From assembly GCA_007375735.1 (NCBI GenBank), contig VMEW01000001.1, positions 11,831 to 75,830 on the forward strand: 64,000 nucleotides of DNA. Reading direction: 5' to 3'. Positions within the stretch are counted from its first letter, which is position 1. The number at the start of each line of letters is the position of its first letter. Shown here piece by piece: positions 3,460 to 50,718 of the stretch. A program made the position numbers and the translations under genes. A model generated the notes under the pieces. The model searched no databases. It had not been told where the DNA came from and saw only the letters and a list, made by a program, of their open reading frames with translations. The DNA comes from Candidatus Peregrinibacteria bacterium Greene0416_19 (GTDB lineage Bacteria > Patescibacteriota > Gracilibacteria > Peribacterales > Peribacteraceae).

Positions 3460-4809
3460 TCAATTTGACGAAGCCGACGATGACGCCTTCTGCGTCACAT
3501 CCTCATGATCCAGCAGCCACTCTAGCGCAGCATCCAGCTGCGGATCGCGCTTGGCCTTCGCGTCCTCCACCGTCCGGTCCATCTTGATATCCGGCTGCAC
3601 CTTCTCCTTCCCTAAATTCTTTCCTTTGGGGGTCAGCCAGTGGGCGATGGTGACGCGCAGACTGCTGCCGCCGGGCAAATCGATGATTTCCTGCACCGTC
3701 CCCTTGCCGAAGGTTGGCATGCCGACCAACATTGCTCTCTTGTGGTCCTGCAGGGCACCGGCGGTGATCTCCGACGCCGACGCCGATCCTTCGTTGATAA
3801 GGACGACCAGAGGCAGCGTCGGCTCGATGACCCGCCCGTTCACGTCGTGATGTATCGAATCGGCGTCACGGCGTTCCACGGATACCACCCGTCCCTCCTT
3901 CAGGAACATCGACACGAGCTGGGTCGCACCCTCCAGGTAGCCCCCTCCGTTGAAGCGCAGGTCGAGGATGAGAGCTTTGATGGGCGGCTTTTCCTTCTTG
4001 AAAGTCTGCAGAGCCTCCCGCACTTCGTTGATGCTGTTCTCGCCGAACTGATTCAGGATGATCACGCCCACGGCCCCGCTCTGGGTTTGCTTGACCGATG
4101 ATTCCACGCTCGGGATGCGGATTTCGTCGCGGACGATCACGAGCGTACGTTCTCTTCCTTCGTTCTTGCGGAAGACGTTGAGCACCACCTTCGTTCCCTT
4201 GGGACCGCGGATCAGGTCCACGACCTGCGTGAGCGTGAGCCCCTGCACCGTGGTGCCGTCCACTTCCAGAATGATATCATCGGGGGCCAGGCCCGCCTTC
4301 TCGGCCGGCGATCCCTTGAGCGGCGATACCACGATGATCAGGCCGTCGCGTTCCACCAGCTCCGCGCCGATGCCTTGGAGTTTGCCGTTCAATGACTGGC
4401 GGAAATTCGTGTTTTCCTTGGGTGTCATGAACACGGTGTACGGATCGCCAATCGAGCGCACCAGCCCCTCCACCGCGCCGTACACCATCTTGCCGGTCTG
4501 CAGCTTGTCCGGCTCGATGTGGAAGCGCAGGAGCAGCCGCCACACGCTCCAGAGGAGCGCGAGGTCCACCTCCCGTTCCGGATCGGACATCACCTGTCCG
4601 CTCCCGGTCGCCGGGGAGAAGATCCGGTCGATCGCCCCCATCTTGTCTTCCAGCACTTTCACCTGGTACCGCATGCCCAAATGCCAGCCGAGCAGCAGCG
4701 CGAGCAGAATCAGCAGCCAGTAGCGATAATCTCTATACATACCCGCATGGAGCATGACGAATGGCGAACGAAAGAAACTCTCCATTCCCATTCTCCATTC
4801 GCAATTCAC
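3460..4809 (-). CDS. S41 family C-terminal processing peptidase with PDZ domain
   Basis: 449 aa. N-terminal TM helix, PDZ-like segment (GLAPDDIILEVDG) and S41 core with TFGKGTVQ. GTG start at 4809. Confidence 0.9.
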   Translation of the reverse strand: MNCEWRMGMESFFRSPFVMLHAGMYRDYRYWLLILLALLLGWHLGMRYQVKVLEDKMGAIDRIFSPATGSGQVMSDPEREVDLALLWSVWRLLLRFHIEPDKLQTGKMVYGAVEGLVRSIGDPYTVFMTPKENTNFRQSLNGKLQGIGAELVERDGLIIVVSPLKGSPAEKAGLAPDDIILEVDGTTVQGLTLTQVVDLIRGPKGTKVVLNVFRKNEGRERTLVIVRDEIRIPSVESSVKQTQSGAVGVIILNQFGENSINEVREALQTFKKEKPPIKALILDLRFNGGGYLEGATQLVSMFLKEGRVVSVERRDADSIHHDVNGRVIEPTLPLVVLINEGSASASEITAGALQDHKRAMLVGMPTFGKGTVQEIIDLPGGSSLRVTIAHWLTPKGKNLGKEKVQPDIKMDRTVEDAKAKRDPQLDAALEWLLDHEDVTQKASSSASSN

Positions 4810-7465: not shown

Positions 7466-7492
7466 GAGTTGTGAGCGTCGCGGCTGTTATAC

Positions 7493-7727
7493 ATGCCCCC
7501 TCCCCCGGCCCCTCCCCCTCGGCCTCGACCCTCTGGGGTCTCGGCCTGGGAGAGGGGAAGGTTAATCTTTCAATGCCGCACGGCGGAGCCGTGCTGCTGA
7601 TTGCAATAATGAACAATTGATCGTAGCAGCACGGCTCCGCCGTGCGGCATTCACCTACGCCTTGCCCTCTCCCAGGCCGTAGGCCCGCAGGCTGAGGCCG
7701 AGGGGGAGGGGTCGGGGGAGGGGGCAT
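7493..7727. repeat. 235-bp nested palindromic element (ATGCCCCC-terminus family)
   Basis: Outer 34-bp arms 7493-7526 / 7694-7727 have 1 mismatch. The middle arms contain CGGCCTGGGAGAGGG. Inner perfect 27-bp arms are 7572-7598 / 7625-7651. Confidence 0.9.
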
Positions 7728-7763
7728 GGAACAAGGCGGGCAAAAACTCGCTACAATCCTCAG

Positions 7764-10834: not shown

Positions 10835-10893
10835 ATTGAGAATTGAGAATTGAAAATTGAGCATTACATTCTCCATTCTCAATTCAGCATTCC
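10835..10893. repeat. AT-rich imperfect palindrome of ATTGAGAAT / ATTCTCNATT words
   Basis: ATTGAGAATTGAGAATTGAAAATTGAGCATTACATTCTCCATTCTCAATTCAGCATTCC. Same word family as 611-642 and 4779-4807. Confidence 0.75.
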
Positions 10894-20835: not shown

Positions 20836-21978
20836 ATGCGAGCGCGGATCGTCATCCTGTCGGCATTCGCCACCCCCTACCGCAGCGGCGCGGAGGCGTG
20901 CGCGGAAGAGATCGCGAAGCGACTCCTGCCGCGCTACGACGTCACGATCGTGACGGCGCGAATGCGGAGGGATCTGCCGCGCTCCACGAAGATCGCCGGC
21001 GGCGTGCCGCTCCTGCGCGTCGGTATCGGGAGCGAGCGACTCGATCCGTGGCTCTTCCCGCTCCTCGCGCCGTTCCATGTCCGCCGGCTGCGGCCGGTCC
21101 TGATCCACGCGATCCTGGAGACGTTCGCGGGGTTGGCACTGCACTGGTGCGGATTCTTTTCGAAAAAATCCAAGCGGCTCCTCACGCTGCAGACGACCAA
21201 CCGCAGCTTTCTCAAGTCGACCATCCTGCGTTCGCCTGATGCCGTCACCGCCATCAGCTCCGCACTTGTCCGGTCCGGCAGGGAGCGCGGACGGACGGAC
21301 ATCGAACTCATCTCCAACGGCGTCGATCTCCCCGCACTCCGCCAGGCTTGTGAGCGGTACCCGAAGATGTCCGGGAGAATCCTCTTCGTCGGCAGGCTCG
21401 AGCCGATGAAGGGGATCGATATCCTCCTGCGCTCATGCGCCGAAATTTTCTCGGAACCGGGAGCCCGGGGCGTAAAGCCCACGTGGGGGCCACGCCCCCT
21501 TTACGGGGCTCCCGGTTGCATGGATGTGAGGATCGTCGGGGATGGCTCACAGCGCCGGTCGCTTGAAAAGCTGGCACATGGCCTGGGCGTCGCCGGGCAC
21601 GTGCAGTTCCTGGGCTACCTCCCTCCTGCCGCCGTCTGTCGCGAATTCGCGCAAGCGGAAATATTTTGCGGGCTCTCGATCAGCGAGGCGATGGGGAACG
21701 TGTTCCTGGAAGCACAGGCTGCTGGCTGCGCGGTCATCGGCACGCGCGTGGGCGGGATTCCGGACATCGTCAAGGATGGCGAAACGGGGCTCCTCATTCC
21801 CCCGAACGATGTGAATACCGCCGCATGGGCGCTCAAGGCGCTCCTCACCGACGCACATCTCCGCTCGCGGTTGCAGGAAGCGGCACGGCGACACGCGGAA
21901 GAATACGACTGGGATATCGTCGCCGGCAGGTATGCAACTGTGTATGATCGGCTGCTCCCATCAGTCGCTCATGCCTGA
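20836..21978 (+). CDS. GT4 glycosyltransferase carrying an in-frame palindromic insert
   Basis: E-x7-E region: LSISEAMGNVFLEAQAAGCAVIGTRVGGIPDIV. Residues ARGVKPTWGPRPLYGA are encoded by the repeat at 21466-21511. Confidence 0.85.
   Translation: MRARIVILSAFATPYRSGAEACAEEIAKRLLPRYDVTIVTARMRRDLPRSTKIAGGVPLLRVGIGSERLDPWLFPLLAPFHVRRLRPVLIHAILETFAGLALHWCGFFSKKSKRLLTLQTTNRSFLKSTILRSPDAVTAISSALVRSGRERGRTDIELISNGVDLPALRQACERYPKMSGRILFVGRLEPMKGIDILLRSCAEIFSEPGARGVKPTWGPRPLYGAPGCMDVRIVGDGSQRRSLEKLAHGLGVAGHVQFLGYLPPAAVCREFAQAEIFCGLSISEAMGNVFLEAQAAGCAVIGTRVGGIPDIVKDGETGLLIPPNDVNTAAWALKALLTDAHLRSRLQEAARRHAEEYDWDIVAGRYATVYDRLLPSVAHA
21466..21511 (+). repeat. 46-nt palindromic element, copy 1 (intragenic, in-frame)
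   Basis: CGGGGCGTAAAGCCCACGTGGGGGCCACGCCCCCTTTACGGGGCTC. The exact reverse complement is at 22759-22804. It contains the CCCACGTGGG palindrome and a GGGGCGT/ACGCCCC stem. Confidence 0.9.
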
Positions 21979-22351
21979 TATCCCCTCGCTCATCGAACGT
22001 TGGGATACGCAGATGAATCGACGGAGCGCGTCCGACGATTGTTTCCTCAACCACGACCATGCGGCGCGGGCACTCCTGACTCTACTCGAGGAGATGCTGG
22101 CGCATCCCGCCGCCGCCCGTGCATTCGTACTAGCCAAAGCCGAGCGGCTCATCGCACCGGACCGTTTGCTGTTTTTCGCGACCGCCGTCGCTGCGGAGCT
22201 GTTTTCAATCTACGTCAGACTCCATGCCACCTTTCACGAAGATCCTCTCACGCATGACGACCTTGCCGCCGCCGCACGAGCTCTGCTGCCCGGAACAGAC
22301 TCTCAAACGTCCCCGCATCCATCCATTCCTCCCGCAGCACCGTTGCCTTGA
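21971..22351 (+). CDS. hypothetical helical protein (uncertain)
   Basis: The ORF has GC-rich third positions over its first two thirds. Its last ~100 nt overlap the convergent nucleotidyltransferase gene. Start uncertain (21932/21944/21971). Confidence 0.3.
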   Translation: MPDIPSLIERWDTQMNRRSASDDCFLNHDHAARALLTLLEEMLAHPAAARAFVLAKAERLIAPDRLLFFATAVAAELFSIYVRLHATFHEDPLTHDDLAAAARALLPGTDSQTSPHPSIPPAAPLP

Positions 22352-23003
22352 GTGCCCCGCGTTCCAGGTATGCCCTGCTTACATCCGTGATCTCGATCTC
22401 TCCACGAGGCGATGGCGGGAGCTTCCGGATGATATCGAAGCAATGTTTATCGTACACGTAGCATCCTGTCACTGCGAGATCGCTCTTGGGTTTCGTCGGT
22501 TTTTCTTCAATGGATATGATGCGATTGCCCTCCATCTCCGCCACGCCAAACCGTTCAGGGTCCGTCACTTGCTTGATGAACACATGGCCGCCTGCTTCGA
22601 ATGACTTGATGACCGGTGACAGATCATCGAAATACACGTTGTCTCCCAGGATGGCGCAGACGCTGTCGTTGTCGGCGAACTCTTCGGCGAGACCCAGTGC
22701 CTGTGCGATGCCGCCGGGCTTCTCCTGCACTTTGAAGGCGAACTCGCAGCCGAAGCGCGAGCCCCGTAAAGGGGGCGTGGCCCCCACGTGGGCTTTACGC
22801 CCCGACCCCAGGAACCGCGCGATCTGCTCCATATGCTCGGTGCCGGTCACCACCGCGATTTCCCGGATGCCCGCGGAGAGCAGCACCTGGAGCGGGTACT
22901 CGATGAGAGGCTTGTCATAGACCGGGAGCAGGCTCTTATTGGTGATCTCGGTCAGGGGCTTCAGCCGGGTGCCGGTGCCGCCGCAAATGAGGACTCCTTT
23001 CAT
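22248..23003 (-). CDS. sugar-1-phosphate nucleotidyltransferase (RmlA-like, short form) carrying an in-frame palindromic insert
   Basis: MKGVLICGGTGTRLKPLT (GxGTRL), VQEKPGGIAQAL and WMDAGT motifs. Residues GRKAHVGATPPLRGS are encoded by the repeat at 22759-22804. Confidence 0.85.
   Translation of the reverse strand: MKGVLICGGTGTRLKPLTEITNKSLLPVYDKPLIEYPLQVLLSAGIREIAVVTGTEHMEQIARFLGSGRKAHVGATPPLRGSRFGCEFAFKVQEKPGGIAQALGLAEEFADNDSVCAILGDNVYFDDLSPVIKSFEAGGHVFIKQVTDPERFGVAEMEGNRIISIEEKPTKPKSDLAVTGCYVYDKHCFDIIRKLPPSPRGEIEITDVSRAYLERGALKATVLREEWMDAGTFESLFRAAELVRRRQGRHA
22759..22804 (-). repeat. 46-nt palindromic element, copy 2 (intragenic, in-frame)
   Basis: GAGCCCCGTAAAGGGGGCGTGGCCCCCACGTGGGCTTTACGCCCCG is the reverse complement of 21466-21511. 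Confidence 0.9.
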
Positions 23004-23006
23004 AAA

Positions 23007-23140
23007 GATTCAGGGGATTCAGGAGAAGCAGGAGATTCAGGAGAAATAGTAGTAGAATCCAGCTCCGGCGTATAATCATATCATTCTCCTGAATCCCCTG
23101 AATCTCCCGCTTCTCCTGAATCTCCCGCTTCTCCTGAATC
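23007..23140. promoter_or_regulatory. divergent control region with inverted arrays of CCTGAATC words
   Basis: Three GATTCAGG words at 23007-23045 and four CCTGAATC words at 23084-23140. TAGAAT (23053-23058) and TATAAT (23071-23076) lie between the arrays. Confidence 0.6.
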
Positions 23141-26047: not shown

Positions 26048-27193
26048 ATGAAACTTCTGATGGTCTCCGGCGACCGATCGCTGATGGAAGGCAAAAAAAG
26101 CGCCTTCTGGTACACGCTGGAGGAGCTGCACAGGCACTGGGACAGGATTGATGTTATCTGTCCCCGTCCTGCCCTCACATTCCCTCTGCCGCGGCGTGGA
26201 GAAGGGAGTGGAGAGCCGGAGTTCCAGAATGTCTTTCTCCATCCGTCCCCGTGGGGACTCATACGCCAGCCTCGATGGATTCTGCAGAAAGGCCGCGAGC
26301 TCATCGTCGAACAGCATCACGATGTGATGACCGTGCATGAATATCCTCCTTTTTATAACGGACTGGGCGCCTCACGACTTCATCGTGCGACCGGCATTCC
26401 GTACGCGCTCGAAATTCATCACATCATCGGATATCCGGCGGCATCGTCGATGAGCGAATTCGTCGGGCACGTGTTGTCGCAGATCTATTTCCGGTATGGT
26501 GTTACACGGCCTGCCGCTGTGCGCGTGGTCAATGAGGAGGTGAAGGGTGTGCTCACGAGGTGGGGGGTCCCGGCAGAAAAGATTCATGTGGTACATTCGG
26601 CGTACCTCGATCATGCATTGCATGGGAGCCCGATAGTCCCGGAGAGCGACAAACAATATGATGTCGTGTTCGCCGGACGACTCGTCGCGAACAAAGGATT
26701 ACCAGAGGTCATCGATGCGATGTCCGGTCTTTCAGATGCAACATTGCTCATCATTGGGGATGGCCCTCTGCGCGCACAGGCGGAAGCCCGGGTGCGGGCC
26801 CTCGGGATGCAGAGCAGGGTGTCGTTCCGGGGGTGGCTGCCGGAGCAGCGGGATGTGGCGGAAGCCGTTCGATCGGCCAGGCTATTCGTGATGAACTCGA
26901 AGAGCGAAGGCGGGCCGCGGGTGGCGCTGGAGGCGATGGCGATGGGGATACCGGTGATTGTGACGCGGGTGGGGCTGATGCCGGAGGTGGTGCATGACGG
27001 GGTGAACGGTGTGTTCACCGATGGGACACCGGGGGATCTCCGGAAAAAGATTGAACATCTGTTGCATCATGAAAGTGTCAGGCAAGAGATTGGGATGGAG
27101 GCTCAGAAGATTCTTGAGAAATTTGAGAGGGTGCATTTGATTAAAGAATATGCGGAATTTTTAAAGGTTGTAGCTGGTTCTCACCGCGGGTAG
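26048..27193 (+). CDS. GT4 glycosyltransferase
   Basis: MNSKSEGGPRVALEAMAMGIPVIVTRVG. Its stop codon lies inside a REP (27184-27206). Confidence 0.85.
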   Translation: MKLLMVSGDRSLMEGKKSAFWYTLEELHRHWDRIDVICPRPALTFPLPRRGEGSGEPEFQNVFLHPSPWGLIRQPRWILQKGRELIVEQHHDVMTVHEYPPFYNGLGASRLHRATGIPYALEIHHIIGYPAASSMSEFVGHVLSQIYFRYGVTRPAAVRVVNEEVKGVLTRWGVPAEKIHVVHSAYLDHALHGSPIVPESDKQYDVVFAGRLVANKGLPEVIDAMSGLSDATLLIIGDGPLRAQAEARVRALGMQSRVSFRGWLPEQRDVAEAVRSARLFVMNSKSEGGPRVALEAMAMGIPVIVTRVGLMPEVVHDGVNGVFTDGTPGDLRKKIEHLLHHESVRQEIGMEAQKILEKFERVHLIKEYAEFLKVVAGSHRG

Positions 27194-27206
27194 AAAACCC
27201 GCTCTC
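27184..27206. repeat. solitary REP of the RAYT-associated family
   Basis: CCGCGGGTAGAAAACCCGCTCTC matches 50670-50691 and the reverse complement of 50157-50179. Confidence 0.85.
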
Positions 27207-27210
27207 GATT

Positions 27211-39657: not shown

Positions 39658-40473
39658 CTATCCATTTTTTCTCAACACCGCCACGGTCGTCACCCCTTTC
39701 CTGTAAGGTTTCGCTTTCCTCTGTAGAACCTTAACCAATCGCTTCGCCTCCCCCGCGTAGATTGTCTTCAGTATCGCATTGATCGGTGCAGGCGGCATCG
39801 TCACGTCCGTCCCTCCCTCGCCGGACGATGATCCCTTGATGCGGTTGATCATCCGCTGCACCTTCGCGAGTGGGTAGAGCCGGCTCATGCAGTGTGACAT
39901 CAACAGTTCCTCGACCGGCGTACCGGTCCAAAGTTTTCTGAACGTGTCCGGCTCATATCGCCGGTAGTGCTCGAAAGCCACATCATGCGGGCTCCAGAGG
40001 GACATGTCGGCGGGGGCCATCATGATGAGAAAGGCACCCGGCTTCATGTGCTCGATCAGCTCATGGACGAACGCGACGTCATTCTCGATGTGTTCGAGCA
40101 CTTCGATGAGCAGGATGCCGTCGGCTTTCGCAAAATCTTCCGCAACGTCCTTCGGCGCGTAGCCATGGACGAAGGTGCAGTGCGGAAAACGTCCGCGGGC
40201 GCGGTTGAAGCCGTCCTCCGTCGGTTCCACGCCGATGACGCGATACTCCCGTGACAGGTATGCCGTGACACCGCCAGTGCCGCAGCCCACGTCGATCAGC
40301 AGTCGGGATTCGCGTAAAGCGACGTGGTCGCCACGCGACTTTACGTCGTAATCCCGGACCGATGACGGCGGCAGAAGTTCGTGCAACAGTGCATCCAGAA
40401 TCGCGCGGCGGCCCAGGAACCACCAGTGGTGCTCCTCGCAGGCGGCGTGAACGTCAAATTGTGGAGTTTGCAT
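39658..40473 (-). CDS. class I SAM-dependent methyltransferase
   Basis: Motif I LIDVGCGTGGVT and post-I/II segments (ILLIEVLEH). Confidence 0.85.
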   Translation of the reverse strand: MQTPQFDVHAACEEHHWWFLGRRAILDALLHELLPPSSVRDYDVKSRGDHVALRESRLLIDVGCGTGGVTAYLSREYRVIGVEPTEDGFNRARGRFPHCTFVHGYAPKDVAEDFAKADGILLIEVLEHIENDVAFVHELIEHMKPGAFLIMMAPADMSLWSPHDVAFEHYRRYEPDTFRKLWTGTPVEELLMSHCMSRLYPLAKVQRMINRIKGSSSGEGGTDVTMPPAPINAILKTIYAGEAKRLVKVLQRKAKPYRKGVTTVAVLRKNG

Positions 40474-40479
40474 ATGGTG

Positions 40480-41490
40480 TCAGAACATCCGGTTGGTCCA
40501 CGTCTTGGGTGTTTTGTCGGAAATGATCTCGATGTCGAAGGTGTACTTGAATTTCTTCGTTCCGCGCTTCCGGATCCAGTCGATCATCTCCTGCAGGCCC
40601 TGGCGCAGCGTGTAGGTCGTTTTGTAGCCGAGGAGCCTCCGGGCTTTGCCGGCGTCACACGTCGCGAGCTTCACCTCCTGCGGGCGGCCGGGGACGTAGA
40701 CGGGGTCCAGCTTGAATGACAGAAGATCGGCAATCGTCTGCGCGAGCTCATTGATCGTGATAAATTCCTCATCCGGTCCGATGTTGATGACTTCCCCCGC
40801 CACGTTCGGCGCGTCGATGAGTTTTTCAAGAATCTGGATGTCATCTTGTACGAAGCTGAAGCAGCGCTTCTGCTCGCCGTCGCCGTAGATGATCGGCTGG
40901 CGGCCCTGGAGCATCAGGTTGATCATGATGCTTGCCACGTTGCGGTACGGGTCATCGTACTTCTGACGCGGTCCGATGATGTTGTGCGGGACAGCGATGA
41001 CATACTCCATGCTGTGCACGTCTGCGAGGTTCCTCAGCAAATCCTCCCCGGCGAGCTTGGCGATGCCGTAGGGATCCTGCGGCTTGCAGATCATGTCCTC
41101 GGTGAACGGTACCTTCTCCTGCGTGCCGTAGCGCGCCATGCTCGAGCAGTAGACGAACCGGCGCACTCCGGAGGCGATGGCCGCGCTGATCACCGACGCG
41201 GAAATCTGAAATGTGTTCTGCGTGACAAGATTCGGCGCGAAGACCGACAGTCCCTCGTACGCGGTGGCGGCGCAGTGGTAGACGGTGTCCACCCCTTGCA
41301 TCACCTTCTTCATGGAGTTCAGGTACTTGCAGTCGTACTGGTAGAACTCCACTTCATCCGGAACGTTGTCTAGGTAGCCGCCGATCAAGTTATCGCAGCC
41401 GACCACGCCGTACCCGAGTTCCAGGCAGCGTTCGGCCAGGTGACTGCCCAGGAACCCCGCGACGCCGGTGATGAAAATCTTCCTACCCAT
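40480..41490 (-). CDS. NAD-dependent sugar epimerase/dehydratase (SDR)
   Basis: ITGVAGFLGSHL and YGIAKLAGE (YxxxK) motifs. ATG 41490 overlaps the upstream GT4 stop by 8 nt. Confidence 0.85.
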   Translation of the reverse strand: MGRKIFITGVAGFLGSHLAERCLELGYGVVGCDNLIGGYLDNVPDEVEFYQYDCKYLNSMKKVMQGVDTVYHCAATAYEGLSVFAPNLVTQNTFQISASVISAAIASGVRRFVYCSSMARYGTQEKVPFTEDMICKPQDPYGIAKLAGEDLLRNLADVHSMEYVIAVPHNIIGPRQKYDDPYRNVASIMINLMLQGRQPIIYGDGEQKRCFSFVQDDIQILEKLIDAPNVAGEVINIGPDEEFITINELAQTIADLLSFKLDPVYVPGRPQEVKLATCDAGKARRLLGYKTTYTLRQGLQEMIDWIRKRGTKKFKYTFDIEIISDKTPKTWTNRMF

Positions 41491-42610
41491 AGGTTTCAAG
41501 CCATTCGGTGAGTGAAGCCACGATTGTACGTGGCTGGAACTGCGCCTGCGAGAGGCGCAAGCCGCCTTCGCCGATCTTTTTCCGGAGCTGTTCATCGTTC
41601 CTGAGTGTCAGAATAGCCTCCGCAAGCGCATGCGGATCGCCCGACGTCACCAGGAACGAATCCTGACCGTGCCGGAACACTCGCTCAGATGCTGGTGTCC
41701 GGCCGGTGACAAGCGGTCGGCCGCACGCGATCACTTCATACGCTTTATTCGGGATCACGCGAGCGGCTTTGCCGCTCGCGCCGAAGATCCCCAGGCAGAT
41801 GTCCGCGCCGTTCACGAATGCGGGGAGCTCCGTCATCGTCAGCGTGCCTAAGAACTGGACGTTCCGGAGACCCAGCTCGTCGGCGAGCCTCCGCATCGCC
41901 GGATAGGTCTGGCCTTTGCCGGCGAGTTCAAACGTCACATTCTCGCCGCGATCCTGCAACTCCTTGGCTGCAAGAAGAATCGTATCGATACCTTGCAGGG
42001 GGATGAAGGTGCCGTGGAAGCGGATGGTGAACTGCGTCTGTTCCTGCTTTTGATTGTCCCAGCCCCCACCCCCCGGCCCCCTCCCCCGCGGGGGGAGGGG
42101 GAGGAACAAATCAGTACGGCAGCCGATCGGGAGGACCAGAATTTTTTCCGGCGTCAGACCGAACGTGTCGACGAAGTATCGCTTGTGCTCTTCCGTATCG
42201 AGCAGGACAACGGTCGCAAGGTGACATGCGAGCCAGTCGGTGAACCACAGGAACCACGCGTGCGGCGACCATCGGGAAACCCGTTTGCGATCGTGCACTT
42301 CCGTATCGTAGAGCGAGAGGAATGCATCGAGGATGACGGGAATGCCCTCGCGACGTCCGAGCCGCCATGCAAGAAGCATCAAATAGTGGCCCAGGAACGG
42401 AACGTAGATTGCATCAGGTTTGGCTGGCATCGCGTTCCATCTCCGTCCCAGATCGGTGTACTTCGCAAAGAGTCCCTCCGCTTCCGTCCGGCAGAGAGTC
42501 ACCTCGCAGCCTCTTTCGCCGAGCCCGGTGCGGATGACCCACGAACGGGCTCCTTCGAGGTCAAAGTGACCGAAGGCAACGATGCGCTTGGTTGTCGACG
42601 GGGATTCCAT
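41483..42610 (-). CDS. GT4-like glycosyltransferase carrying an in-frame G/C-hairpin insert
   Basis: GT-B architecture. GGAGG lies 9 nt upstream of ATG 42610. Residues PLPPRGRGPGGGGW are encoded by the repeat at 42058-42104, in the inter-domain linker. Confidence 0.8.
   Translation of the reverse strand: MESPSTTKRIVAFGHFDLEGARSWVIRTGLGERGCEVTLCRTEAEGLFAKYTDLGRRWNAMPAKPDAIYVPFLGHYLMLLAWRLGRREGIPVILDAFLSLYDTEVHDRKRVSRWSPHAWFLWFTDWLACHLATVVLLDTEEHKRYFVDTFGLTPEKILVLPIGCRTDLFLPLPPRGRGPGGGGWDNQKQEQTQFTIRFHGTFIPLQGIDTILLAAKELQDRGENVTFELAGKGQTYPAMRRLADELGLRNVQFLGTLTMTELPAFVNGADICLGIFGASGKAARVIPNKAYEVIACGRPLVTGRTPASERVFRHGQDSFLVTSGDPHALAEAILTLRNDEQLRKKIGEGGLRLSQAQFQPRTIVASLTEWLETYG
42058..42104. repeat. 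G/C-hairpin element inside a coding sequence
   Basis: CCCAGCCCCCACCCCCCGGCCCCCTCCCCCGCGGGGGGAGGGGGAGG. Near-identical (3 mismatches by eye over ~40 nt) to the intergenic copy at 44870-44911. Confidence 0.85.
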
Positions 42611-44810: not shown

Positions 44811-44869
44811 GTGGTCTGCATTCATATCTATTGTGGCATTCCAGCCCCCCCCTGCCATTTAAACAAGTA

Positions 44870-44980
44870 GCCCCCACCCCCCGACCCCCTCCCCCGACGG
44901 GGGAGGGGGAGAACGTCAGAAAGAGCATTGATATCGTCCCCCCTTCCCCCATCGGGGGAAGGGGCAGGGGGATGGGGGCT
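44870..44980. repeat. two adjacent G/C hairpin repeats
   Basis: GCCCCCACCCCCCGACCCCCTCCCCCGACGGGGGAGGGGGAG at 44870-44911, and TCCCCCCCTTCCCCCATCGGGGGAAGGGGCAGGGGGATGGGGGC at 44937-44980. Confidence 0.85.
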
Positions 44981-50074: not shown

Positions 50075-50156
50075 GGGGCGTTCCACACCAAGATGGAACG
50101 GACATTTTGATGTACCCAAGCCAAGAATCTTCGTTGTTCAACAAATAAAGAACCCC

Positions 50157-50691
50157 GAGAGCGGGTTTTCTACCCGCGGATGGCGAAGGATAACGGCATG
50201 TCCCAACGCCACCCGACCCAAAACGATTGTGTCATGTTCGTGACGACGAACGTGGCCCGTCGCCTGCCCCTCTTCGCCGATCCGGCCTGTGCCCGCGAAG
50301 CAGTCGAGACACTCTATCGTGTCCAGGCGATGTATCCGTTCTTCCTCTTCGGCTTTGTCATTATGCCGGATCATTGCCATCTTCTCCTGAAGGTTCCACC
50401 ACCAGCAGAAATTTCGAGCATCATTGGTTCCTATAAGCGGGCCGTCAGCCACAATCTCGTCCGCGGTCCCATATGGCAGCCACGATTCCATATGAAGATT
50501 CCGGGCGATTGCTATGCAGCGCTGAGATACATTCACCTGAATTCCGTGAGGGCGAAATTGACCGAGAATCCGGAGGAGTACCTGTGGTCATCAGCATCGG
50601 GGCGGTGGGACGTGCAGAGCTTAGAAGGCCCGTAGGGACATGGCGCGGGTGGAATCTTGCACCTTACAACCGCGGGTAGAAAACCCGCTCT
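50157..50691. mobile_element. RAYT cassette: Y1 transposase gene flanked by inverted REPs
   Basis: GAGAGCGGGTTTTCTACCCGCGG (50157-50179) and CCGCGGGTAGAAAACCCGCTCT (50670-50691) are inverted copies bracketing the ORF. Each unit is a GCGGGT/ACCCGC hairpin. Confidence 0.85.
50180..50635 (+). CDS. REP-associated tyrosine transposase (IS200/IS605 Y1 family)
   Basis: HUH motif in VIMPDHCHLLL and catalytic Tyr context ALRYIHLNSVRAKL...EEYLWSS. Confidence 0.85.
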   Translation: MAKDNGMSQRHPTQNDCVMFVTTNVARRLPLFADPACAREAVETLYRVQAMYPFFLFGFVIMPDHCHLLLKVPPPAEISSIIGSYKRAVSHNLVRGPIWQPRFHMKIPGDCYAALRYIHLNSVRAKLTENPEEYLWSSASGRWDVQSLEGP

Positions 50692-50718
50692 TAGATATAT
50701 TTGTTATTTGATTATTTT

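Follow-up and report, generated by a model that had tools for sequence, protein, structure and literature searches.

Two unrelated glycan genes on opposite strands of one contig share an identical 46-nt block, and the question raised by this locus is what kind of unit they have in common. The locus lies in a 64,000-nt stretch of Candidatus Peregrinibacteria bacterium Greene0416_19 (contig VMEW01000001.1, positions 11,831 to 75,830), the whole of which is referred to here as the window. The block, CGGGGCGTAAAGCCCACGTGGGGGCCACGCCCCCTTTACGGGGCTC, was found at exactly two sites in the window, 21466-21511 on the forward strand and 22759-22804 on the reverse strand, both with 0 mismatches, the former being the exact reverse complement of the latter. 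No further copy is present in the window, even with 3 mismatches allowed, and none of 100 dinucleotide shuffles contained a match. An earlier sequence-only reading of this DNA had already claimed the exact reverse-complement pair, which is borne out, and had taken the shared unit to be nucleic acid as opposed to a protein domain, which is supported by the use of two reading frames and by the comparison with orthologues described below. We propose that the 46-nt blocks are copies of a small structured repeat, akin to repetitive extragenic palindromic (REP) sequences and Rickettsia palindromic elements (RPEs), that was inserted into pre-existing genes and filtered by selection, and that they do not represent a shared protein module (probability approximately 0.75).

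The first copy resides in a called gene for a GT4-family glycosyltransferase (20836..21978, forward strand, 380 residues; Pfam Glycos_transf_1, Glyco_trans_1_4 and Glyco_transf_4), the homologues of which share 51-59% identity and are mostly shorter. The second is located in a called gene for a short-form glucose-1-phosphate thymidylyltransferase-like protein (RmlA-like; 22248..23003, reverse strand, 251 residues; Pfam NTP_transferase 1e-52, and PDB matches). Most RmlA homologues are 234-250 residues long, typically 236-238. The two genes converge, and the same strand of the element is therefore present in both mRNAs. Translation confirms the earlier claim that the frames differ: the GT4 protein reads RGVKPTWGPRPLYGA (residues 211-225), RmlA reads GRKAHVGATPPLRGS (with the copy corresponding to residues ~68-81, (S)GRKAHVGATPPLRG(S)), and TAA occurs in the third frame. 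A comparison to the wider family shows that 41 nt of each block constitute the element proper (21468-21508, forward strand, triplet class CCC/GGG; 22762-22802, reverse strand), with the remaining 5 identical bases being flank. Compared to the 39-nt family, both copies are longer by one A and one C and thus represent a 41-nt variant. A called 139-residue gene (21932-22351, forward strand), for which Pfam gives no match, overlaps the 3' ends of both host genes and is probably a false prediction in GC-rich DNA. The spacer between the divergent RmlA and RmlB genes (23006-23140) consists of 9-nt periodic repeats (GATTCAGGAGAAGCAGGAGATTCAGGAGA and its mirror) that form a large imperfect palindrome around the presumed promoters.

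The insertion is clearly delimited in RmlA. All 15 orthologues compared (70-79% identity) read FLGS-G-x-RFG where the window protein reads FLGS-GRKAHVGATPPLRGS-RFG, corresponding to a 13-residue gap. The consensus of a 49-sequence RmlA alignment is likewise FLGSGxRFG, and the solved RmlA structures 3HL3 and 1FXO display the identical 13-residue gap relative to the window protein. Hence, the conserved LG(D/S)G..FG segment, which had been predicted to be split by the insert, is indeed interrupted (FLGSG-xRFG). At the DNA level, an empty site was found in a fully syntenic Peribacteraceae locus (L015), which reads TTC CTC GGA TCC GGC TCG CGC TTC GG compared to TTC CTG GGG TCG GG[39 nt]C TCG CGC TTC GG in the window. 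No family copies were detected in this relative using a covariance model of the family. The net gain in RmlA is 39 nt (13 codons) and not 46, with the placement ambiguous only over a run of three G. The proposed 46-nt unit is therefore corrected to an element of 41 nt at this locus (39 nt in the family) with a net insertion of 39 nt, and the predicted insertion of 15-16 residues holds for RmlA as an insertion, albeit one of 13 residues.

For GT4, the prediction is only consistent with the data. The copy falls in a linker that ranges from 0 to ~35 residues among orthologues, and because the linker length varies, an insertion is compatible with the alignment and not delimited by it. AlphaFold2 models of the two proteins are confident overall (pLDDT, the predicted local distance difference test, of 86 and 92.5). 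In the RmlA model, the insert (residues 68-78) forms a low-confidence coil (pLDDT <50) with a helix (55-64) before and a strand after. In the GT4 model, the insert lies in a coil (206-229, pLDDT ~58-64) between a helix (194-205) and a strand (230-235). Elsewhere in the family, filled and empty units are found adjacent to one another in a verrucomicrobial tandem REP-like array (L004), where the element is intergenic, and comparison of a GatB protein with structure 3H0L shows that a canonical copy corresponds to 13 extra residues. In three filled/empty comparisons, units of 40, 41 and 39 nt added a net 38, 39 and 39 nt, respectively. These comparisons are inconsistent as regards a target site or motif, and none is claimed.

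The element is not confined to the GT4/RmlA pair. A canonical 39-nt copy identified by a hairpin scan (40310..40348, reverse strand) is located ~17 kb from the pair, and is the best match in the window to the covariance model (R1; 61.7 bits, E=3e-13), compared to 49.2 bits for each of the GT4 and RmlA copies (GT4 copy E=3e-10). Its sense strand, CGAC GTAAA GTCG CGTGG CGA CCACG TCGC TTTAC GCGA, has the same layout as the GT4 and RmlA copies with different stems. The copy is in-frame in a called gene for a 271-residue class I S-adenosylmethionine-dependent methyltransferase (39658..40473, reverse strand; Pfam Methyltransf_23, _25, _12 and _11) and is read as (Y)DVKSRGDHVALR(E), residues ~42-55, placing it just N-terminal of the Rossmann core (PDB homologues align from residue ~55). 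No empty-site orthologue was found for this copy: the methyltransferase of the L015 locus was rejected as an orthologue, given 26% identity over part of the protein, and thus provides no empty site. With filters off, the covariance model detects only these three intragenic copies in the window (E <= 3e-10), and the flanks add a fourth copy in a spacer (locus L008) 3.7 kb left of the window. This amounts to 4 copies in ~77 kb of the source genome.

Independent assembly supports the presence of these palindromes in the reads. In the Logan assembly of SRR8863439, contigs end inside palindromes of this genome, including mid-element at 40328. The contig ends (in L009, L011 and L013) match window positions 7537, 40328, 44898 and 54226, exactly inside palindromic repeats. 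As the contigs end mid-palindrome, the methyltransferase copy and the other palindromes exist in the reads in the same context. The concern that the copies could be the artefact of one assembler is thus answered for the methyltransferase copy, half of which is present in the independent assembly. No Logan contig was returned for the GT4 or RmlA proteins. Such palindromic elements thus fragment small-k assemblies and truncate gene calls.

To define the family, the pattern GTAAAG-N(2-7)-CGTGG-NNN-CCACG-N(2-7)-CTTTAC was scanned over 596 Gb of GTDB species-representative genomes. With 22 fixed bases, we estimate ~1-2 chance sites, and at least 116 were found. Record titles assign ~51 of these to Patescibacteria/candidate phyla radiation (CPR), ~50 to Verrucomicrobiota and ~15 to others, and some of the last may be mis-binned, as they share flanks with Verrucomicrobia contigs. 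The GC content of host loci is 35-66% in the CPR group and 32-71% over all groups. The exact core was found on six peat or rhizosphere metagenome contigs, where it is intergenic, and the proteins on these contigs cluster with those of Verrucomicrobiia/Limisphaerales metagenome-assembled genomes (MAGs). The exact 22-nt core has no match in GTDB genomes and viral contigs and only chance-level partial matches in plasmids and phages, while canonical 39-mers have no match in plasmids and phages. One CPR MAG contains at least 7 pattern copies, with more detected by the covariance model. Besides an assembly artefact, the sequence-only reading had named homologous residues in distant orthologues and an absence of further copies as observations that would speak against an insertion; the RmlA orthologues lack the residues, and more copies exist both in this genome and elsewhere.

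Several individual loci add detail to this distribution. In a Patescibacteria MAG (L021, JAHKAK010000109.1; 4552-6833), a uvrA open reading frame (ORF) contains three family copies, with a fourth 21 nt past its end; the pattern detected two of these and the covariance model the other two. Across six contigs of the same MAG, there are ~13 family copies of at least 3 triplet classes. Verrucomicrobial copies (e.g. L024, L032, L048 and L108), coding ones included, nearly always lie between GTTGA-R and R-TTGAG (CTCAAC when read on the opposite strand), so either the dispersed unit in this lineage exceeds 39 nt or the target is itself a repeat. In a Peribacteria MAG (CAYHOS01; L080 and L098), the 39-nt core forms part of a longer G/C-rich repeat that encodes EGLGVEE-type peptide repeats on both sides of the core peptide, an arrangement that suggests composite, RPE-1-like larger units. 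One family copy is located on a predicted viral contig (IMGVR_UViG_3300047409_000209; L132 4061-4099), not in a sizeable ORF, and a vehicle of this kind for spread between lineages is possible.

The family unit can be written as R-C-GTAAA-G-N / CGTGG-R-CCACG / N-C-TTTAC-G-R, where N stands for a triplet that varies from one subfamily to the next and R for its reverse complement. Its 39 nt correspond to 3 x 13 nt, and hence to 13 codons. Among 129 copies, 114 are exactly 39 nt long. The verrucomicrobial metagenome copies represent a 40-nt variant. The invariance of the GTAAA, CGTGG, CCACG and TTTAC blocks follows by construction from the scan pattern, which leaves the triplets and outer flanks unconstrained. 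All five triplets obey the relation a=c=e=R and b=d=N in 88 of the 114 canonical copies, distributed over 13 triplet classes. Class CCC is common to CPR and Verrucomicrobiota; other classes are lineage-restricted, and several can coexist in one MAG.

This five-way covariation of the triplets shows that nucleic-acid structure is under constraint. Using 33 unique sequences, a three-hairpin model leaves 95.8% of cells paired and collapses when the partners are slid. Compensated (doubly changed) cells number 57, compared to 15 +/- 3 in shuffles (0/500), and even the central 'loop' triplet covaries. A single 12-bp hairpin with a 5' GTAAA tail receives covariation support equal to that of the three-hairpin register and is the thermodynamic optimum for some triplet classes, with minimum free energy structures differing between classes. 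The two registers being equally supported, the choice of one fold was dropped: judged from the aligned copies, more than one fold is compatible with the constraint. The GGGGCGT/ACGCCCC stem put forward earlier is compatible with these data as one of several registers, while the conserved structure comprises the five covarying triplets and the constant blocks.

An approximate, ORF-based classification places 46 of the 129 copies (about a third) in long ORFs and 18 in medium ORFs, with 65 outside sizeable ORFs. For random positions in these loci, the share within long ORFs is 70%, and the family is thus depleted in genes but far from excluded. Nine in-frame hosts are confirmed by Pfam. In six of them (GatB, LepA, aconitase, MetRS, hydantoinase B and a pseudouridine synthase of the RluD type), the copy falls inside the region that matches the domain; the other three are UvrA, a Mur ligase and a further NTP transferase. 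Inside genes, copies are read through in one or the other of the two stop-free frames of either strand. Two peptide patterns recur, xVKxRGxHxxLRx and xRKxxWxPRxFTx, with a frame use of 29 to 16. Copies that are read through number 64, whereas at most 8 (weak) candidates for the stop-containing frame were found; in the absence of selection, 32 of the latter would be expected. An in silico deletion test is noisy, as 31 of the 65 short-ORF copies show a gained ORF with one of four deletion variants, in most cases a small extension. The frame bias fits a model in which translated elements are purged when harmful, and does not fit removal at the RNA level.

In the model we favour, the family would be a REP/RPE-like selfish DNA that is non-autonomous and either mobile or copy-pasted. 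Genic copies would survive only where the frame is kept, the TAA frame is avoided and a permissive loop is hit, and the survivors would be translated into 13 additional residues that are rich in Gly, Pro and Arg and need have no function. The element may thus persist in genes because it adds 13 stop-free codons in loops. Propagation could occur via recognition of a single-stranded hairpin by a trans-acting HUH/Y1-type enzyme (REP-associated tyrosine transposase (RAYT) or IS200-like) or a comparable one. This is our most likely guess as to the route and a tentative one, because no enzyme is linked to the family.

A RAYT gene is present in the window (50180..50635, forward strand, 151 residues; Pfam Y1_Tnp; NCBIfam NF047646 REP_Tyr_transpos, 84 bits against a cut-off of 80). 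It is bracketed by inverted GTAG-type hairpins (region 50138-50711) that are distinct from the 39-nt family. The hairpin gcgggTAGAAAAcccgc lies directly upstream of the RAYT start (50156..50179), with partners at 50667-50690 and 27184-27207. The latter, an exact copy, overlaps the end of a glycosyltransferase gene (26048..27193), where the TAG of the hairpin provides the stop codon. A variant of the GTAG hairpin (L008 3180-3198) likewise ends pheT, just outside the window.

A number of observations weigh against the insertion model. No empty site delimits the insertion in GT4 or the methyltransferase, and no fixed-length target-site duplication is seen at the three filled/empty comparisons, where the junction ambiguity is 0-3 nt. 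The window RAYT was rejected as a linked mobiliser since its flanking hairpins differ from the 39-nt element, and tblastn revealed no RAYT-like gene in 868 kb around ~125 family copies; a mobilising enzyme linked to the family was thus not found. The search of the source genome covered ~77 kb, every family member comes from MAGs, and the 5 shared flank bases leave room for recombinational copying between the two window copies.

This last point leads to the alternative that only one true insertion took place at this locus and that the second window copy is a local duplicate, made by ectopic recombination or gene conversion across the 1.2 kb that separate the two genes. The 46 nt are 100% identical including the 5 flank bases, 9 of 11 flanking positions match, and both copies share the rare two-base variant (extra A, extra C), as local copying would predict. 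We nevertheless consider it unlikely. The family reaches unrelated sites, including the methyltransferase gene 17 kb off, the L008 spacer and >100 other genomes; 46 bp would be a short conversion tract for two genes that have nothing else in common; and the shared flank (C-G ... C-T-C) could reflect a target preference, given that a verrucomicrobial filled site is also GG/CT. A further possibility is that the element is kept for an RNA or DNA function, be it mRNA structure for translation or stability, a protein-binding site, or an inversion switch between 21466 and 22804. As the frames differ, inversion between this pair would switch off both glycan genes. Such a role would be in keeping with the strong covariation and invariant blocks across phyla, with the RNA or DNA roles known for REPs (PMC3733652), with the location of all three strong window copies in one glycan-biosynthesis region, and with the inverted pair bracketing the 3' halves of the GT4 and RmlA genes. 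The hosts, however, are functionally unrelated housekeeping genes, both orientations and both frames are used, and about half of the copies lie in spacers or other repeats. The covariation is equally expected if structure is needed for mobility only. Given that, in addition, no invertase or alternative arrangement was seen and both proteins are intact in the two assemblies carrying them, we regard a retained function as improbable.

We attach very little weight to the proposal that the insert is removed post-transcriptionally or post-translationally, as a mini-intron or similar, such that the peptides never appear in the enzymes. The element is highly structured, and rRNA genes of CPR bacteria reportedly carry insertions that are removed, as described by Brown and colleagues in 2015; such insertions are also mentioned in PMC4736985. 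Splicing would render frame and stops irrelevant, yet 64 read-through copies contrast with the <=8 in the stop frame. Canonical copies measure exactly 13 codons, Rfam yields no matching ribozyme or intron family, and 13 residues are too few for an intein. Finally, assembly or sequencing could have introduced the palindromes, for instance as chimeric or adaptor-like sequence, on the grounds that family members all derive from metagenome assemblies and that palindromes are hard for assemblers, with the Logan contigs breaking at them. An adaptor would be one fixed sequence, whereas thirteen covarying, lineage-specific triplet classes are observed. Copies show an in-frame bias, contig names point to different assemblers and many studies, and an independent contig ends in the same element half in the same context, leaving this explanation with hardly any credibility.

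With insertion of a structured repeat as the preferred model, the family can be compared to known systems. The RPEs (RPE-1 to RPE-8), reportedly found in-frame in genes by Ogata and colleagues in 2000, had been named by the sequence-only reading as the known analogue, and are supported as the closest one. RPE-1 is ~100-150 nt in length. Like RPEs, the family consists of palindromic DNA that lies in-frame in unrelated genes including housekeeping ones, is apparently translated and tolerated in loops, and also occurs in non-coding DNA. In-frame palindromic repeats without an orthologue counterpart define RPEs, and are found here in the form of the RmlA insertion with its empty site and the in-frame copies of GatB, aconitase, MetRS and others. 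Unlike RPEs, the family has an unrelated sequence and architecture (39 nt as three 13-nt modules with a five-fold covarying triplet), and its hosts are CPR and Verrucomicrobiota. RPE-4/6 is a CGTC-tagged stem-loop with an 8-9 bp stem and a CCA tail (PMC3733652); when compared by description, the 33 unique 39-mers contain neither a terminal CGTC nor an 8-9 bp single stem.

Intragenic REPs of the GTAG and CGTC types have been described in several phyla (Di Nocera, De Gregorio & Rocco 2013; PMC3733652). The richest GTAG case is the verrucomicrobium Opitutus terrae, in which uvrA, helicases, tRNA synthetases and pseudouridine synthases are interrupted (PMC3733652). Novelty thus appears to lie with the family itself and not with the kind, since in-frame palindromic repeats outside Rickettsia have been reported there. 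The GTAG/CGTC REPs are 20-40 bp palindromic repeats, multi-copy and mostly extragenic yet in some cases within genes (PMC3733652). The present family resembles them with its 39-nt length and 4 copies in ~77 kb, and host-gene classes common to both are uvrA, an aminoacyl-tRNA synthetase and a pseudouridine synthase. It differs in being a fixed composite rather than a single stem-loop, and in that its blocks (C-GTAAA-G, CGTGG, CCACG and C-TTTAC-G) provide no REP terminal tag; the listed GTAG variants are GYAG, GYRG, GTRG, GTMG and GTGG (PMC3733652), and GTAA is not among them. One register of the element, the 5' GTAAA tail followed by the 12-bp hairpin, does resemble a tagged REP. The O. terrae REP peptides GTGVPPV, VGPALAAG and HGRHARAT differ from those of the 39-nt family. 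The family is depleted in coding sequence, far less strictly than classical REPs.

REPIN-RAYT systems were reportedly described by Nunvar and colleagues in 2010. They share with the family a non-autonomous, multi-copy unit with two inverted hairpin-forming halves (Bertels & Rainey 2011, PMC3116915), and a RAYT is present in the window. REPINs are ~100 nt, extragenic and vertically inherited, and flank a single-copy RAYT (PMC3116915), whereas the 39-nt family is cross-phylum with a third of its copies in ORFs. The window RAYT is flanked by the other hairpin, gcgggTAGAAAAcccgc, and no cognate RAYT flanked by the 39-nt unit was found in the window or in the 868 kb around other copies. Cyanobacterial small dispersed repeats, reportedly the subject of work by Elhai and colleagues in 2008 (in Genome Research), are likewise tiny palindromic units that are nested in other repeats, occasionally genic, and without an obvious transposase or target duplication. 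They have other sequences and hosts and measure ~21-27 nt, and we know of no report of codon-multiple length or five-fold triplet covariation among them. ORF-bearing intragenic MITEs (miniature inverted-repeat transposable elements) also combine short terminal inverted repeats with in-frame copies that add peptide segments (Delihas 2007/2011; PMC3184786). Terminal inverted repeats, CGTAAAG/CTTTACG (7 nt), are present in all pattern-selected copies, partly by construction. A typical MITE spans 100-400 bp, has target-site duplications and can be assigned to a parent insertion sequence (PMC3184786), and no such feature was found for the 39-nt family; no insertion sequence with CGTAAAG/CTTTACG ends was seen in the loci examined, which are segments of genomes.

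Rfam yields no family at gathering thresholds, and around the copies the only match at E<=5 is a spurious snoRNA (E=2.6). A search of the literature, mostly without subscription journals, for the family strings, peptide signatures and CPR/Peribacteria repeats returned no description, the only string match being an unrelated bee-virus paper. While the kind is already known from RPEs and intragenic REPs, the 39-nt family itself is apparently undescribed.

The window contains further repeats. A second, unrelated G/C-rich palindrome family is in-frame (LPLPPRGRGPGGGGW, 42061-42103) inside a glycosyltransferase gene (41483..42610, reverse strand), the orthologues of which have a linker that is 10-12 residues shorter at this position; a 93%-identical copy at 44869-44911 is intergenic. 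Three intergenic MITE-like units (7492-7526/7694-7728, 48318-48341/48411-48434 and 54082-54111/54225-54254) share the termini CATGCCCCC[T/A]CCCCCG[G/A]CCCCTCCCCCTC, which form long inverted repeats with 70-170 nt between them. A perfect 27-nt inverted repeat (7572-7598/7625-7651) is nested within the first unit (7492-7728). AT-rich AATTCTCAATTTTCAAT-type repeats are located at 610-640, 4789-4808 and 10835-10886. Two 26-nt inverted-repeat pairs are present at 5422-5447/8316-8341 and 36607-36632/36776-36801, one of which overlaps a gene start.

A more far-reaching, speculative model, which we find rather doubtful as a whole, is that the 39-nt unit constitutes an undescribed cross-phylum class of 'coding-compatible' selfish DNA. 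The 13-codon length and two stop-free frames per strand would represent adaptations to genes, and the five-fold triplet would act as a programmable code (e.g. guide-like pairing that sets structure or target choice) read by a dedicated enzyme. The sharing between CPR and Verrucomicrobiota would then reflect horizontal exchange, possibly between episymbiont and host.

In-frame palindromic DNA in genes has hitherto been regarded largely as something peculiar to Rickettsia and a small number of REP-rich genomes. The present family extends it to a compact 13-codon element located in essential genes (GatB, LepA, MetRS, aconitase, UvrA and a Mur ligase) of two large lineages that are mostly uncultured, one of them the genome-reduced CPR. 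It yields a searchable model for a repeat that inflates and decorates MAG proteins and breaks small-k assemblies, and its five-fold triplet covariation offers an unusually clean natural experiment on the structure needed for propagation. For annotation, it serves as a warning that 13-residue Gly/Pro/Arg-rich inserts in CPR proteins can be repeat-derived and not functional. Furthermore, gene flow between CPR and Verrucomicrobiota might be traceable by means of the family, which may also supply proteins with new surface loops.

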